DNA of 64,000 bases. Origin: Escherichia phage T4. Within the stretch, counting starts at the first letter, position 1. Each line of letters starts with the position of its first letter. The position numbers were made by a program, and so were the translations under genes. The notes beneath the pieces were generated by a model. The model worked only from the letters and a program-made list of their open reading frames with translations. It was not told the origin of the DNA and did no database searches. The DNA lies in sequence record NC_000866.4; one strand, written 5' to 3'. This document shows positions 5,885-41,878 of the stretch, piece by piece.

Positions 5885-6679
5885 CTACGAATAGGCCCAA
5901 ACATATCCATAAGCAATTTTGCTTTTTCCAGATATGCACTTTTTAATATTAGACATGCATCCTTTAACGGATACAGCTGCGTCTTTAATTCTAGGAAATA
6001 CTCGTAATAATTTTCCAGTAGTATCATATTGAAATACTGGCACATTTCTTTTCTGAGTTATCCCACGTTTAGATTTAGACATTTTTTGTTTAGTTGCATT
6101 AGACATCCTAGAGGGCTTTCCTATGTTATCAGAATAATAATATTTCCATTGAAATCCTCCAGCGGTTTTCCTTTTACCATCTACACATTGTTTAATTGAA
6201 GTTGAACAGCTATATGACATATCTTCTGCAGCATCTGTAATACATCTATATTTGCGAATAAAATTTCCATTTAAATCATATTGATAAATTGGTTTTCCAG
6301 CATTTCGTCTAGCGTTAGACATGTATTTTTTATTATCATCATCTTTCCAGAACTCTTTCATGCTTTCCGATATTGAAGAAGATACAGCTGTTTTAATCCA
6401 TCCATACATTTTATTATTTAGTCTTGTTCCGTCAGAACTATAACACATCATACGAATAGCTAAAGCCAATTTAGGAAGTCTATAAATTTTAAATAATAAT
6501 AAATGCGCGGTAAAATGTTCTTCTGGTGTCAAAAGAACTAAATTAGTTTTATCATCTGTACCACCCATACATCTAGGAATTATATGATGTGTTTCAGTAT
6601 AGTATGTCAAAAGACTTTTATCATTGCCTCTGTTTAGTCCTTTTTCGATCAGTAAATTATATATGTTTAAATAATTCAT
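5885..6679 (-). CDS. mobB: HNH homing endonuclease (MobB-like)
   Basis: 264 aa; HNH motif HHIIPRCMGGTDDKTNLVLLTPEEHFTAH; free-standing between a-gt and 55. Confidence 0.8.
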   Translation of the reverse strand: MNYLNIYNLLIEKGLNRGNDKSLLTYYTETHHIIPRCMGGTDDKTNLVLLTPEEHFTAHLLLFKIYRLPKLALAIRMMCYSSDGTRLNNKMYGWIKTAVSSSISESMKEFWKDDDNKKYMSNARRNAGKPIYQYDLNGNFIRKYRCITDAAEDMSYSCSTSIKQCVDGKRKTAGGFQWKYYYSDNIGKPSRMSNATKQKMSKSKRGITQKRNVPVFQYDTTGKLLRVFPRIKDAAVSVKGCMSNIKKCISGKSKIAYGYVWAYS

Positions 6680-10445: not shown

Positions 10446-10916
10446 TTAATCATGTTTCCACACCCCATCGGTATTTGACCAAAGTCGCTGATTATCTGAT
10501 CCTCGCCACAGCTTTTTGGTCGGAAGATTTTTCTCATACTTCCCATCAATAATAACATCAACATATTTAAGCATTTCTAGTTGTTTAATATCTTCAAACT
10601 TATATCCTGTCCACAACCAGATATCTTTCTCCGGAAATCTTGCTTTAACCCAAGAAACTAAATTTGAAATCTCTTCTCGGTTCTGTGGATAAAGTGGGTC
10701 ACCGCCGGTTAAGGTAAGGCCTTGGATATACGATTTGCTTAAATGGGACGCAAGTTCTTTAACGGTATTCATAGTGAATAACTGTCCGTTACGAGCATTC
10801 CAAGTACTACGATTATAACAACCTTCGCATTTATGCAAACATCCAGTGACGAAGAGAACGACCCTACATCCAGGGCCGTTAACGAAATCGCATGGATAAA
10901 TTCTATCATAATTCAT
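10446..10916 (-). CDS. nrdG: anaerobic ribonucleotide reductase activating protein NrdG (radical SAM)
   Basis: Start trimmed to MNYDRIYPCDF; radical-SAM Cys cluster CLHKCEGCYN; 156 aa. Confidence 0.9.
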   Translation of the reverse strand: MNYDRIYPCDFVNGPGCRVVLFVTGCLHKCEGCYNRSTWNARNGQLFTMNTVKELASHLSKSYIQGLTLTGGDPLYPQNREEISNLVSWVKARFPEKDIWLWTGYKFEDIKQLEMLKYVDVIIDGKYEKNLPTKKLWRGSDNQRLWSNTDGVWKHD

Positions 10917-11538
10917 CTTTATATTTCCAAGTATATCCCTTATGAATAGATTGAATTCCTTTGCAACATTTATAAACAGCAGAATGAAAAAATCCTGCAT
11001 TTCTTATTTCAGTTGCTCCAGTTAGTTCTATTGTATTTCCGTCTGGTGAATAGCCAATAACCGTTTTGGTGTTAAAGCGATTTCTAGAACTATTTTTGAT
11101 ATGCTCTTTATGATTAGTAGACAAAGTTCTTCCTGTTAGCCCATCAGATATCCTTTTTCCAAAATCATCAGGAAGAGTTACTTTAGACCTAGCTATGCTC
11201 ATTAGCTTCTTAGTTTTATCGCTTCTTTTTGCGCCACGCTGATTTTCAAATTTCTTAGCTTTTGCATACGCGTATTGTGAAGAAGTAACTTTTCTATGCT
11301 TACTATTACTCATTATCCAATATGCATCATACATCTTTCCACCATATATTTTAGCCAATAAATGGTGAGCAGTATAGTGGGCCTTATAAGTTAAAAATAC
11401 TAAGTTGTCTAAATCATCTGAACCACCCATACTTCTTGGAATTATATGATGAAGTTCATACCCGGCTTTAGTTTGACGGGGCTTAGATGGGTGTTCAGCA
11501 GAATTAACTAGATTTGAATAGATTCTGTCATAATTCAT
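10906..11538 (-). CDS. mobC: HNH homing endonuclease (MobC-like)
   Basis: 210 aa; HNH motif HHIIPRSMGGSDDLDNLVFLTYKAHYTAH; between nrdG and nrdD. Confidence 0.8.
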   Translation of the reverse strand: MNYDRIYSNLVNSAEHPSKPRQTKAGYELHHIIPRSMGGSDDLDNLVFLTYKAHYTAHHLLAKIYGGKMYDAYWIMSNSKHRKVTSSQYAYAKAKKFENQRGAKRSDKTKKLMSIARSKVTLPDDFGKRISDGLTGRTLSTNHKEHIKNSSRNRFNTKTVIGYSPDGNTIELTGATEIRNAGFFHSAVYKCCKGIQSIHKGYTWKYKDEL

Positions 11539-12809
11539 TGGTGCTTAACCCTATGCATGATTTCTTTATTTTTACCGAGATTAAATCCGCGTTCGTTCGG
11601 ATTTCCCAAATAACCACATGTTCTTCTTATGGTATTCATCTTTTTAGGATCAGTTTCTCCACAAATAGAACAAACAAATCCGTTTTCAGTAGGAGTCATT
11701 TCATGGGTACTTCCACATGTAAAACATTTATCTACTGGCATATTAACACCAAAATAATCTAAATGCTGTGCAGCATAATCCCACACGGCCTCAAGACCTT
11801 TTAAGTTATTTTTCATATCAGGAAGTTCAACATAAGAAATGTGACCACCTGTCGCAATGAAATGATATGGCGCTTCACGAGAAATCTTTTCAAACGGAGT
11901 AATATTTTCTTCTACTGAAACATGGAAACTGTTAGTGTACCAGCCTTTATCGGTAACATCTTTTACGCTTCCATATTTTTCTGTATCGAGTTTACAGAAG
12001 CGATAACACAGGTTTTCAGCAGGAGTCGAATATAAACTAAAAGCAAATCCGGTTCTTTCAGTCCACTGTTTAAGATGAGCATTCATTTTAGTTAAAATTT
12101 CTCGTCCAATATCACGACCGACAAGAATATTCAATTCGTGAATACCAATGTATCCTAAAGACACTGAACTTCTACCGTTTTTAAATAACTCAATTATGTC
12201 GTCATCAGGTTTAAGACGAACCCCGAATGCACCTTCTTGGTAAAGAATAGGAGCAACAGTAGCTTTAACTCCTTTTAAGGAACTAATTCTACACATCAAA
12301 GCTTCAAAACATAAATCCATTCGTTCATTAAATAGCTCAACAAATTTCTGTTCATTGAACTGTGTTCCAATATAAGAATCTAACGCGATGCGAGGAAGAT
12401 TCAGTGTTACAACACCAAGATTATTGCGTCCATCAAGAATTTCATTGCCAGTCGAATCTTTCCATACGCTCAAGAAACTACGGCAACCCATCGGAGAAAC
12501 AGGAACAGATGAACCAGTGATAGCTTTATTGTTCTTAGCTGAAATAATATCAGGATACATCCTTTTGCTTGCGCACTCTAGAGCAAGCTGTTTAATATCA
12601 TAGTTCGGATCGTCTTTATAAAGATTAACACCTTCTTCAACGAACATAACAAGCTTAGGGAAAATAGGAGTTATCCCATCACGACCAAGACCTTTAATAC
12701 GATTTTTCAGAATTGCTTTCTGAATCATTCGTTCAGTCCAGTCAGTTCCCGTACCAAATGTAATTGTTACAAAAGGAGTCTGTCCGTTTGAACTGAATAA
12801 CGTGTTCAC
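11535..12809 (-). CDS. nrdD: anaerobic ribonucleotide reductase NrdD, exon 2 (C-terminal part)
   Basis: 424 aa ORF ending with glycyl-radical motif RRTCGYLG and Cys cluster CFTCG...CSICG; upstream boundary is the 3-prime splice site, not a start codon. Confidence 0.85.
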   Translation of the reverse strand: MNTLFSSNGQTPFVTITFGTGTDWTERMIQKAILKNRIKGLGRDGITPIFPKLVMFVEEGVNLYKDDPNYDIKQLALECASKRMYPDIISAKNNKAITGSSVPVSPMGCRSFLSVWKDSTGNEILDGRNNLGVVTLNLPRIALDSYIGTQFNEQKFVELFNERMDLCFEALMCRISSLKGVKATVAPILYQEGAFGVRLKPDDDIIELFKNGRSSVSLGYIGIHELNILVGRDIGREILTKMNAHLKQWTERTGFAFSLYSTPAENLCYRFCKLDTEKYGSVKDVTDKGWYTNSFHVSVEENITPFEKISREAPYHFIATGGHISYVELPDMKNNLKGLEAVWDYAAQHLDYFGVNMPVDKCFTCGSTHEMTPTENGFVCSICGETDPKKMNTIRRTCGYLGNPNERGFNLGKNKEIMHRVKHQ

Positions 12810-13845
12810 TTCATCAATGTGTTCAGTAGAGTTCGCTACTTCTCTACCCGTTTATATGAAACAATGTAATTTGGATAATTGTCATCTAAACACAAATCTT
12901 TAATACGACTTGGGTGGAGTTTTAAATCTTTAGCAGCATCCACAAATGATTTATAGATATTGTCATTTATTTTAACATATTCTGGGACGGGATGAATTGT
13001 TATTTTTATATCTATAACATTTGGATGATTACTAACCTGTTCTTCAGAGCATTTAAGAAATTTTGCAGCTGATTTAAAACTTCTAAATTTATTTCCGGAT
13101 TTTAAAGCTATAGAAACAGTCTTTTTAGCCGTTCTACTACCAATATTATTTTTAACATGAGCTTCACTTCTACTATTATTTTTATAATGCTCAATCAATT
13201 TCTCTCGTATCTTATCTTTATGTTTTAAAGATAAGATTTTACCTTTATGGGCATTACTAAGTTTTTGCTTATGTTCTTCTGAATCCGGATATTTGTTAAA
13301 TTTATATCCACCTATAGATTTATTAAGAATAAATTCGTTATTAAAATATTTCCTAATAAGCATTTCTTCATGTTTAAGGGCCGATTCATAAGAATCAAAA
13401 ACTTGAAGAATTATCCACTTAGCTTTATAATCTTTAAGCTTTTCTTTAACAAGCTTAGATGACGAATTGTATTCTTTCCAATTTGTATCTTTACCATATA
13501 TAGTTTTGAATTTTTTAAAACCTATATAAAAAGACTTATCAGGAAATCTTACCATATAGGTAAATGCTACAGAATTGGCAATTTTTAAGCTTTTTCTTAA
13601 TTTCCATTTCATCGTTTCACCTCGTATTCATATTTATACGAGGATAAACAGCTGCATGTCACCATGCAGTTCAGACTATATCTTCAACTCTTAGAGTTGT
13701 CTGCCGTTTCGGGTCGCTTGACCCTACTCCCTTACATTCATCAGGGATAGTCGTTGGGCATTTACAGCTACTGCTGATTTAGCAACGGATTGTCTCAGTG
13801 AGAGTTTCCCGTTTTAGGCAGATTTTACATGAGCTTGACTTACGT
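12810..13845 (-). mobile_element. group I self-splicing intron in nrdD carrying I-TevII (boundaries approximate)
   Basis: Non-coding structured GC-rich core 13613-13845 recalled as the T4 nrdD (sunY) intron; embedded GIY-YIG ORF; NrdD reading frame interrupted; exon totals 181+424 match the ~605 aa NrdD. Confidence 0.8.
12836..13612 (-). CDS. I-TevII: intron-encoded GIY-YIG homing endonuclease I-TevII
   Basis: 258 aa ORF MKWKLRKSLKIANSVAFTYMVRFPDKSFYIGFKKFKTIYG... inside the nrdD intron. Confidence 0.9.
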   Translation of the reverse strand: MKWKLRKSLKIANSVAFTYMVRFPDKSFYIGFKKFKTIYGKDTNWKEYNSSSKLVKEKLKDYKAKWIILQVFDSYESALKHEEMLIRKYFNNEFILNKSIGGYKFNKYPDSEEHKQKLSNAHKGKILSLKHKDKIREKLIEHYKNNSRSEAHVKNNIGSRTAKKTVSIALKSGNKFRSFKSAAKFLKCSEEQVSNHPNVIDIKITIHPVPEYVKINDNIYKSFVDAAKDLKLHPSRIKDLCLDDNYPNYIVSYKRVEK

Positions 13846-24445: not shown

Positions 24446-25208
24446 TATTAGACCTTTCATAATCTTCATTAAATTGTACAATCAATCGATGATAATTAGA
24501 TTTTGGATATCCTAATTTACTTATATAAGTTCCGAATGACCCACGTTTAGGTCTATTTAATTTAATCCATAACTTATAAAGTAAGTCATAGTCTTGCCAA
24601 TGTTTACCAGTTCTTTGTCTAATTTTAGATGAATTTGATTGTTTCTTTTTAGCTTCAAAATTATTCAAAGATTTTTTGACTGCAGCAGAGTGTTTTTCTT
24701 TAACTCCCGGTCGTTTAAAAGCAGCTTTCACCCCTTTAGATATTTTTTCTTTAACTTCCGGTTTGTTTTGTGCTTCTAACTGGGATTCTGAAATTTTAGC
24801 CCTTATTTCAGGAAGACTTAATGTTATCGAACGTTTTTCTCTGTATTCATTAGACTTCCACATTTCTTTCATTGTATTAGAATGTATTTTTGAAAATTTT
24901 TCTCTAACTAACTGATATCCTCTTGAAGTTAATTTGAGATTTCTTCCTAAAGAATCTTCTCCAAAATTATAAAATGACCACCATGCATAAATTAATCCAG
25001 GCGAATTGTAATGAATTTTAGCTAAAAGCCAATGGGCTATAAAATGCTCTCTAGCTGTTAATAAAACTAGATTATCAGAATCATCATTACCACCAATACA
25101 AGATGGAATAATATGATGCTTTTCCGTATAAAAATTTAATTTAGATTTATCTAATTTTCTGAGTTTTCCTTTCTTAATTAAATTATTATATACTTTAGTA
25201 TAATTCAT
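24429..25208 (-). CDS. mobD: HNH homing endonuclease (MobD-like)
   Basis: 259 aa; HNH motif HHIIPSCIGGNDDSDNLVLLTAREHFIAH. Confidence 0.8.
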   Translation of the reverse strand: MNYTKVYNNLIKKGKLRKLDKSKLNFYTEKHHIIPSCIGGNDDSDNLVLLTAREHFIAHWLLAKIHYNSPGLIYAWWSFYNFGEDSLGRNLKLTSRGYQLVREKFSKIHSNTMKEMWKSNEYREKRSITLSLPEIRAKISESQLEAQNKPEVKEKISKGVKAAFKRPGVKEKHSAAVKKSLNNFEAKKKQSNSSKIRQRTGKHWQDYDLLYKLWIKLNRPKRGSFGTYISKLGYPKSNYHRLIVQFNEDYERSNNENCS

Positions 25209-33415: not shown

Positions 33416-33718
33416 TTATTTATCTTTAATTGCTTTAGCTGCTTCGATAGCCGCTTGCTGAAGGTCATCCATAGACATGCCGAACTTAGAAGCAAAGTTA
33501 TCAATTTTCTTTTCGACGGCATTCAAAGGCTTGGCCTGTTTACCTTCATTAGCGCCAGGAAGAGCGAGAATACGCTCTCTGTCAATATAAAGGCTTACAA
33601 GTTTCTTACGGTCTTTATCGGGCAAATCATGAAATGAATGGGCCTTTTTATTTACAGCGGCTTCTAATTTACCTGCGCCCACTCGCGCTTCGGCAATAAA
33701 TTCTTGATATGTTTTCAT
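33416..33718 (-). CDS. ipII: internal protein II
   Basis: 100 aa; N-terminus MKTYQEFIAEA shared with ipIII (capsid targeting sequence). Confidence 0.85.
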   Translation of the reverse strand: MKTYQEFIAEARVGAGKLEAAVNKKAHSFHDLPDKDRKKLVSLYIDRERILALPGANEGKQAKPLNAVEKKIDNFASKFGMSMDDLQQAAIEAAKAIKDK

Positions 33719-33833: not shown

Positions 33834-34415
33834 TTAAGAATTACCACGGGCTGCATTAGCAACGGCGTAAGCGTACTGAATATTAGCGTCTTTAAACTTA
33901 CCTTTAGAGGTATCTATTTCTGCCTTAAAGCCGCCTTTAGTCATAACATCGGCAAATTCTTTACGGAAAGCCATTGCATCAAGACCTTTCCATGATGATT
34001 TATGCTTGGCAAATTCAAGACCTGCGAAGTTGACAGCTTTAGCCAATTTATTATCAATGACCCATTTACCGGCTTTAGGCACAAACTTCGGGCCTTTCTG
34101 TTTAGAGAACAGTTTTAAATTCCAGCGGCGAAGGTCTGCATCAGCTTTAACAAATTCTGAGTCTAAGTTACTAGCAACAACATCTTCAATATGAGCAAAT
34201 TTAAGTCCGTCAACTTCAATATTTAAATCGGTACGCCAGCGAAGTCCTTCCCAAGCGAAGGCTTTAAAGTCGGAAGCCTTTGTAGCTAAGTACCGTTCAA
34301 TAGGAGCTGTTTTAGGGTCAAAGCCGTTTCCTGATCGGTAGGTCCACTCATCTTTGTTAATGCCTTTGGCCTTTACTACAGAAGCTTCGGCAATAAATTC
34401 TTGATATGTTTTCAT
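33834..34415 (-). CDS. ipIII: internal protein III
   Basis: 193 aa; N-terminus MKTYQEFIAEA. Confidence 0.85.
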   Translation of the reverse strand: MKTYQEFIAEASVVKAKGINKDEWTYRSGNGFDPKTAPIERYLATKASDFKAFAWEGLRWRTDLNIEVDGLKFAHIEDVVASNLDSEFVKADADLRRWNLKLFSKQKGPKFVPKAGKWVIDNKLAKAVNFAGLEFAKHKSSWKGLDAMAFRKEFADVMTKGGFKAEIDTSKGKFKDANIQYAYAVANAARGNS

Positions 34416-41590: not shown

Positions 41591-41878
41591 TTACAAAAGA
41601 TTTTTAGCAATAATCTTGAGATGTGCCGCAGAAATGTGTTTAGCTTTAAACAACGCAGTTTCTTCAGCAGGAGAGATAACGATTGTAGCACCATCCTTTT
41701 TAGCAGACCACCCATCACCTAGGTAAACAGTACCTTTGATTTCTTCGCCATCAACCAGACTAATCATTGGTTTACCTTCTCGTCCTTTATTTGCTTTAAT
41801 AACTTCAGAAGTAAGAGTAGCTTCGGTAATGGTAGAAACCGGGGTAGTTGTAGAAGTAAATTCTTTAAATGTTTTCAT
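41591..41878 (-). CDS. ipI: internal protein I (IPI), injected anti-restriction protein
   Basis: 95 aa MKTFKEFTSTTTPVSTITEA...; capsid targeting N-terminus like ipII/ipIII. Confidence 0.85.
   Translation of the reverse strand: MKTFKEFTSTTTPVSTITEATLTSEVIKANKGREGKPMISLVDGEEIKGTVYLGDGWSAKKDGATIVISPAEETALFKAKHISAAHLKIIAKNLL

Follow-up and report, generated by a model that had tools for sequence, protein, structure and literature searches.

In-frame insertion of a homing endonuclease cassette as the probable origin of the repeated mobC and nrdG gene start in bacteriophage T4

The nrdD-nrdG region of bacteriophage T4 (record NC_000866.4) carries mobC, a putative homing endonuclease gene of the HNH type, directly upstream of nrdG, and the two genes open with nearly the same 21 nucleotides (nt). 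From an analysis of 64,000 nt of T4 DNA, hereafter referred to as the window, we consider it probable that this repeat represents two alleles of the nrdG start, flanking an in-frame insertion of mobC in a cassette that has been spread by homing. The cassette would comprise the part of mobC that runs from roughly codon 8 through the stop, together with a foreign nrdG 5' end of about 55 nt, and would sit within the first codons of the resident nrdG, whose product begins MNYDR[F/I]Y in mobC-less phages. Copy 1 of the repeat would be the resident ATG and seven codons, which now open mobC with the ATGA overlap with nrdD retained, and copy 2 would be the imported nrdG start, which overlaps the mobC stop by 11 nt and restores a complete nrdG. 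The positions of these elements are collected in Table 1.

Table 1. Elements of the mobC-nrdG region of T4, with positions in the window
Feature	Position	Strand	Remarks
mobC	10906-11538	-	Gene for a 210-residue free-standing HNH homing endonuclease (putative activity); open reading frame (ORF) calls and T4 record MT984581
nrdG	10446-10916	-	ORF calls and MT984581
ATGA, nrdD stop over mobC start	11535-11538	-	4-nt overlap; ORF calls and MT984581
mobC end (..KDEL, stop) over nrdG start	10906-10916	-	11-nt overlap, ATGAATTATGA
Repeat copy 1, mobC codons 1-7	11518-11538	-	Probable resident nrdG start and left cassette border
Repeat copy 2, nrdG codons 1-7	10896-10916	-	Probable cassette-borne nrdG start, right border zone
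nrdG nt 1-~55, cassette-specific 5' end	10862-10916	-	Unlike T2-type and Jiaodavirus-type alleles where those agree
nrdG nt ~56-300, Jiaodavirus allele	10617-10861	-	90-100% to Merci, K65evo5 and KMI12, versus 40-83% to T2 and Sf23
nrdG nt 301-471, ordinary Tequatrovirus allele beyond the right-hand crossover	10446-10616	-	97-100% to T2 and Sf23

The repeated start and the host alleles of nrdG

Copy 1 is ATGAATTATGACAGAATCTAT and copy 2 is ATGAATTATGATAGAATTTAT; in reverse complement each reads MNYDRIY, and the agreement of 19 of 21 nt reported in the initial annotation is confirmed on the minus strand, with mismatches at nt 12 and nt 18. The overlap of mobC with nrdG, given there as 10 nt, is 11 nt when the stop codon is included. 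The copies lie 622 nt apart and rank first among the direct repeats of the region, and their match can be extended to 21 of 24 nt. Sites within three mismatches of the repeat pattern occur twice in the 64 kb, as the two copies themselves, compared with 0.03 expected from shuffled sequences. Among 133 ATG-initiated ORFs of the window, unrelated gene starts match one another at 17 of 21 nt at most, the null set being composed of the longest ATG-ORFs, in which nrdG opens at 11000, and being valid for unrelated starts.

The empty sites of T2 and Sf23 place nrdG where mobC starts in T4 (...CACCAATGAATTATGATAGATTTTATCCTTGC), and the ATGA overlap also links nrdD to nrdG in mobC-less phages (...CACCAATGAATTATGATAGATTTTAT in T2 and Sf23, with nrdG at that position). 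The loci of T4 and of these empty-site phages differ in length by exactly 622 nt, which is the period of the repeat. The initial annotation had regarded a differing nrdG start in phages without mobC, together with MNYDRIY in MobC homologues elsewhere, as a sign of ancestry within the Mob family; the start is essentially the same there, at 20 of 21 nt in both T2 and Sf23.

mobC was found in 30 of the 834 records that hold the locus, three of them from Klebsiella phages of the genus Jiaodavirus and 27 from non-Klebsiella phages; the records come from at least three backgrounds, and Tequatrovirus and Jiaodavirus are both among them. Its copies are at least 99.1% identical while the flanking genes of the carriers are just 80-90% identical or thereabouts, which indicates a very recent passage of the gene between coliphages and phages of Klebsiella. 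One carrier, HP3 (NC_041919), has Rosemountvirus in its taxonomy line yet a T4-like locus with a mobC 99.8% identical to that of T4, which is probably a labelling oddity.

The head of mobC varies with the phage that carries it. In Jiaodavirus a 74-residue ORF precedes the site in place of the nrdD end, and the sequences upstream of the mobC ATG in T4 (the nrdD 3' end) and in Jiaodavirus are unrelated from position -3. The nrdG start of empty-site Jiaodavirus phages is ATGAATTTCGACAGAATCTA[C/T], encoding MNFDRIY. mobC of Boboto and Wolf_ER13 is the same as that of T4 at 631 of 633 nt, and both differences lie in codon 3, where TAT is replaced by TTC; the head of the gene in the Jiaodavirus carriers, ATGAATTTCGACAGAATCTAT, encodes MNF and agrees at 21 of 21 nt with the start of nrdG in KMI12, a phage whose site is empty. 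Behind mobC, nrdG of Boboto and Wolf_ER13 opens with the T4-type copy, and copy 2 does not vary among T4, HP3, Boboto and Wolf_ER13, different as their host backgrounds are. These comparisons suggest that the mobC head tracks the nrdG allele of the host and not the endonuclease, and the empty-site relatives of Boboto and Wolf_ER13 would be expected to start nrdG with ATGAATTTC.

A second HNH endonuclease, which is MobD-like and carries the motif EAHHVLPKS, lies at the same site in the Tequatrovirus phage F25 and in the Jiaodavirus phage Roth67. The bodies of the two genes are 84.8% identical, and the first 39 nt of each agree with the resident-type nrdG of its genus at 39 of 39 nt while differing from one another at 9 of 39 sites. 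The endonuclease stops at the same nrdG junction (..INEL, then stop), and the nrdG downstream of it is another allele, beginning MNYDRIYPCC. This appears to be an independent case of a gene head that tracks the host allele. The suggestion in the initial annotation that the endonuclease gene copied the start of its neighbour thus survives in modified form: the start of mobC is that of nrdG, but it would have been taken over by in-frame insertion, with an imported nrdG start behind it, as indicated by the head following the host allele, by the 39 of 39 nt in the second endonuclease and by the presence of D at position 4 in only 2 of 89 Mob-family representatives.

It is likely that a fusion of this kind is tolerated, in that the Mob and NrdG N-termini (MNY[QKE][RK]IY and MNYDR[YIF]Y, respectively) are natively similar, so that both proteins would be left essentially intact. 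MobC matches the Pfam HNH family PF01844 at 27.6 bits (cut-off 21.4), and H30, H31, N45, H54 and H58 are invariant among 61 family members. In an AlphaFold2 model with a mean predicted local distance difference test (pLDDT) score of 93.1, residues 1-10 have a pLDDT of 96 and residues 3-13 form a confident helix, and in this model the N-terminal heptad accordingly belongs to an ordered region of the HNH protein.

nrdG mosaicism and recombination joints

T4 nrdG is a mosaic (Table 1). In bins of 30 nt from its start it is 77%, 83% and then 100% identical to that of KMI12, which also provides the best non-carrier match, of about 90%, to the cassette-specific nt 1-55. Further downstream, nt 301-330 are conserved in both types at 93%, and identity to Jiaodavirus over nt 331-471 is 60-77%. 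Megablast with nt 100-300 recovered about 135 Klebsiella and Raoultella phages and about 30 coliphage-type records, the latter being close in number to the 27 non-Klebsiella carriers of mobC although the lists were not paired record by record; none of about 600 other Tequatrovirus records matched. As would be expected of co-conversion, T4 nrdG is Jiaodavirus-like over nt ~56-300 and Boboto nrdG is T4-type over nt 1-113. It thus appears that nt ~56-300 of T4 nrdG are of Klebsiella-phage origin and were co-converted with mobC, and from the mosaic and the Megablast pattern together we infer that a Jiaodavirus-like donor passed mobC and about 300 nt of nrdG to the T4 lineage.

Since T4 has ordinary Tequatrovirus nrdD on the left through position -1, the left joint must lie inside the patch that the two gene starts have in common. 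Copy 1 of T4 consists of ATGAATTAT, which is coliphage-like, followed by GACAGAATCTAT, as in Jiaodavirus nrdG, and the joint is bracketed within CAATGAATT..GACAGAATCTAT, nt -2 to 21. The run of T4-type sequence breaks off at about nt 17 of copy 2 in the SHFML-11 group and in Shark_ER15, and on the left the SHFML-11 group is joined at CATGCATAGG, a microhomology of 10 nt that links a T6-type nrdD end with T4-type sequence. Donor homology was found on one side only, with the joint at a short shared sequence, which is the pattern of one-sided homing.

The natural mosaics suggest that the cassette spread by double-strand-break repair, that is, by homing. Homology on the nrdG side would give rise to co-conversion tracts of about 17 to 300 nt, while on the left, where Jiaodavirus has a further ORF in place of the nrdD end and homology can therefore be lacking, the joint would form at the microhomology of the patch, CAATGAATT..GA... 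The gain of mobC and 300 nt of nrdG by the T4 lineage from its Jiaodavirus-like donor would then represent one-sided homing with an illegitimate joint. We predict that MobC cleaves at nt ~20-55 of nrdG in mobC-less alleles, where the cassette allele is recoded.

In SHFML-11, ELT1 and BCPShso_001 (locus ~1260-1300) the joint at CATGCATAGG leaves a gap of 12 nt between the nrdD stop and the mobC ATG. nrdG of these phages is T4-type apart from nt 18-51, where a T6-type patch (PCDF to PCCF) may indicate the region of target or immunity for SegH or for the F25-type enzyme.

Counter-evidence and alternative explanations

Several observations weigh against an in-frame insertion spread by homing. The activity of MobC is entered as 'not determined' and its target as 'unknown' in Table 1 of PMC2988022, the direction and number of the transfers are inferred, and the crossovers are placed by few informative sites and can be given as brackets only, nt 9-22 for Jiaodavirus and nt -1 to 22 for T4. 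Repeat-mediated deletion of mobC was found neither in 50,697 phage records nor in IMG/VR. For T4 taken alone the peptide match could be largely ancestral, as six of the seven heptad residues are native to both the Mob family and NrdG, and a MobC homologue with its own native start, that of leB, still matches the adjoining nrdG at 16 of 21 nt.

The search for deletions had been proposed in the initial annotation, which also saw the repeat as a possible seed for recombination. That role is borne out to the extent that natural recombinants are joined at the patch, but deletions between the repeats were absent from the phage records and from IMG/VR. A simulated junction of the nrdD end with T4-type nrdG gave just two-piece matches with mobC present at 98% identity or more, the best single-piece matches being empty sites at 87-94%, and an exact-pattern deletion scan of IMG/VR gave no matches. 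One candidate for a product of mobC deletion, 236Ecol005PP, was rejected: its empty-site nrdG is of the T2 type, apart from a small patch of 30 converted nt at nt 91-120, AATCGTAGT, that is identical to the T4/KMI12 allele. The patch resembles a short gene conversion without mobC.

The similarity of the two starts might instead reflect ancestry or convergence alone, Mob and NrdG proteins each beginning MNY..IY with AT-rich codon usage and no sequence having passed between the starts, and the Mob family was surveyed with this in mind. An exhaustive protein search found 13,277 relatives of MobC, compared with 12 from a word-indexed search, and in most of the top 150 the alignment begins at the first residue of both proteins. 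Among 89 representatives that share the motif, the N-terminal consensus is MNY[QKE][RK]IY, with MNYQRIY the commonest form; N is found at position 2 in 68, Y at position 3 in 89, R at position 5 in 35, I at position 6 in 69 and Y at position 7 in 87. NrdG homologues, bacterial ones included, have the consensus MNYDR[YIF]Y, opening MN in 83 of 88, with Y at position 3 in 77, D at position 4 in 71 and R at position 5 in 79. The resemblance of these consensuses favours ancestry, as does the similar pattern in MobB (MNYLNIY, 6659-6679) and MobD (MNYTKVY, 25188-25208), both of which are as the initial annotation described them, and the occurrence of exact MNYDRIY in one of the 89 Mob-family representatives. 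The Pseudotevenvirus phages leB and Kiwi_ER50 have MobC homologues that are 45% identical, with a 35-nt leader of their own and the native start MNYHKIY or MNYQKIY, and the 16 of 21 nt by which the leB-type start matches nrdG appears to be the baseline attainable by convergence alone.

The variation among carriers is not readily accommodated in this way. The sole two nucleotides that set Jiaodavirus mobC apart from that of T4 restore the local codon of nrdG, TTC, F at position 3 is present in none of the 89 Mob-family members, the codons GAC AGA ATC TAT agree with the Jiaodavirus nrdG start, and the endonuclease heads of F25 and Roth67 are those of the resident nrdG at 39 of 39 nt in two genera. 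The convergence allowed for in the initial annotation is thus supported by the likeness of the consensuses and by the leB baseline, but the T4 match exceeds that baseline and the head follows the nrdG allele across genera. Ancestry seems to account for the peptide pattern only and, on these sequence comparisons, to be already contradicted as a complete explanation; we regard it as improbable.

The Pseudotevenvirus slot directly upstream of nrdG is itself variable. RB16 has an ORF of 20 codons there (locus 773-835), leN has an ORF of 176 residues (locus 773-1303) whose first and last codons are those of the RB16 ORF, and leB and Kiwi_ER50 have the MobC homologue instead.

Selection on translation provides a further alternative, in which the 21 nt are kept alike as a favourable context for initiation or re-initiation, an ATGA overlap followed by A/T-rich codons. 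Both starts do overlap the stop of the upstream gene, and TGA is present in each of the other two frames of the nrdG start (nt 2-4 and nt 9-11), so that any upstream ORF terminates on it; coupling and scanning are discussed for mob genes in PMC2988022. However, the leB-type cassette and T6 segH function with other starts at the same locus, the copies are just 17 of 21 nt alike in the recent Jiaodavirus carriers, with no pressure for identity visible, and the tracking of the host allele by the mobC head is left unexplained. A translation signal is possible as an addition to in-frame insertion but is not needed, and as the origin of the repeat we think it quite unlikely. Promoters and terminators sought between 10300 and 11900 did not rise above the expectation from shuffles.

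Finally, short direct repeats around an inserted mobile gene, here alike at 19 of 21 nt in T4, are reminiscent of target-site duplication by a staggered cut and fill-in, or of concerted evolution through gene conversion within T4. The repeat is not of constant length, however, at 21 nt with mobC but 39 nt with the F25 type, recent acquisitions have unequal copies (17 of 21 nt in Boboto, 29-30 of 39 nt in Roth67 and F25), each copy matches a different parental allele, and the locus has no transposase, only an HNH homing endonuclease. We rejected target-site duplication in the absence of identical repeats of fixed length, the Boboto copies agreeing at 17 of 21 nt even though its mobC is 99.7% identical to that of T4, and consider this last group of explanations very unlikely indeed.

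Known systems, significance and annotation of the locus

The in-frame insertion proposed here has much in common with the intronless homing of T-even phage endonucleases of the free-standing kind, such as the T4 Mob and Seg enzymes (PMC2988022): an HNH gene lies between conserved genes, its presence is sporadic, near-identical copies are found within diverged genomes and flanking DNA is co-converted. It differs in that mobC opens with the start and first seven codons of its presumed target gene, and in that the cassette brings a replacement 5' end. One-sided homing with microhomology joints has been demonstrated experimentally in T4 (Parker et al., 1999, as summarized in PMC2988022), and according to that summary shares with the present case long homology on one side, here nrdG, and a second joint at 9-12 nt of microhomology. 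The case summarized there is the experimental td-intron system of Parker, Belisle and Belfort, whereas that of mobC is natural and apparently cross-genus, with a joint formed in frame in a patch common to two gene starts. Mob insertions have also given rise to genes in pieces, as in Aeh1 nrdA with mobE and T4 39/60 with mobA, where a Mob-type HNH gene similarly lies inside a gene of nucleotide metabolism whose function is kept. nrdG is not divided into two polypeptides, though; the gene behind mobC is a complete ORF of 156 residues with a full Fer4_12/radical-SAM match, and the N-terminal piece would be fused to the endonuclease while the duplicated 5' end restores nrdG. Target-site duplications of transposons are alike in the short direct repeats that bracket a mobile gene, and unlike in that the repeats seen here are unequal and variable in length, each tracking another parental allele, with no transposase.

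The replacement of mobC by segH between nrdD and nrdG was reportedly described by Sandegren and colleagues in 2005. T6 segH lies at the same locus and also brings its own nrdG 5' allele, MNYDRIYPCC; unlike mobC, it encodes a GIY-YIG enzyme and has its own start, ATGCATAGG, which overlaps the nrdD stop with no fusion to nrdG codons. mobC, its position and this replacement are already known, from PMC2988022 among others. In the accessible literature, the 2005 locus paper being outside this scope and possibly holding a prior description, we found no account of an in-frame takeover of the nrdG start, of a gene head that follows the host allele in two endonuclease families, or of a Klebsiella-phage origin for part of T4 nrdG, and the codons shared by mobC and nrdG go unmentioned where both genes are named.

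Among the homing endonuclease genes of T4, mobC belongs to those without an established activity or target, and the nrdG 5' end now becomes a predicted target. The locus would also supply cases from nature of one-sided homing with joints at about 10 nt of microhomology, known earlier mainly from engineered td-intron systems, and would illustrate how a selfish gene can enter a tightly coupled operon free of cost by reusing the start of the host gene and bringing a replacement along. More tentatively, takeover of the start codon could be an adaptive design, rather than a by-product, of Mob-type cassettes that land a few codons inside nrdG with a spare 5' end, although we think this the less likely of the two. 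Such cassettes would inherit translation coupled to nrdD, would be phenotypically silent and could be lost without a scar, and a left arm of 21-39 nt would suffice, making it possible to cross between genera, as from a Jiaodavirus of Klebsiella to the coliphage T4. In its strongest form, the near-universal MNYxRIY of Mob proteins may be pre-adapted to, or derived from, the MNYDRYY of NrdG.

These comparisons are also of use for the annotation of phage genomes, as the nrdG start has been miscalled in several records at this locus. nrdG of Wolf_ER13 (locus nt 1875) is annotated from an upstream in-frame ATG inside mobC, giving a protein of 184 residues that begins MQDFF..., and the same long ORF of 184 residues is visible in the window at 10446-11000; nrdG of SHFML-11 (locus nt 2067) is annotated from a truncated start. 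In T6, segH truly starts at ATGCATAGG (MHRYYIIYKITN..., a GIY-YIG motif; locus 1255-1300), while the record annotates a later ATG, and nrdG, which truly starts MNYDRIYPCC, is annotated from an internal TTG (locus 2080-2110). In section 13 of PMC2988022 mobC is described as overlapping the upstream ORF by 24 bp, with a ribosome-binding site 27 nt upstream. The 24-bp overlap conflicts with the sequence and with current T4 records, in which the overlap is the 4-nt ATGA (window 11515-11560); the stretch that opens with the in-frame nrdD codons ATGCATAGG and runs to the nrdD TGA measures exactly 24 bp, a possible explanation for the figure in the review.

Two further features of the window are of note. 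An ORF of 258 residues between two nrdD coding segments (12836-13612, minus strand) is presumably I-TevII in the nrdD group I intron, which would place two endonuclease genes within 2.7 kb. The window's only other case of a shared gene start involves three minus-strand ORFs at 33416-33718, 33834-34415 and 41591-41878, which we take to be the T4 internal proteins IPII, IPIII and IPI, respectively, with their capsid-targeting leader; two of the three have ATGAAAACATATCAAGAATTT in common at 21 of 21 nt, and the third matches it at 19 of 21 nt (MKTYQEFIAEA / MKTFKEF).

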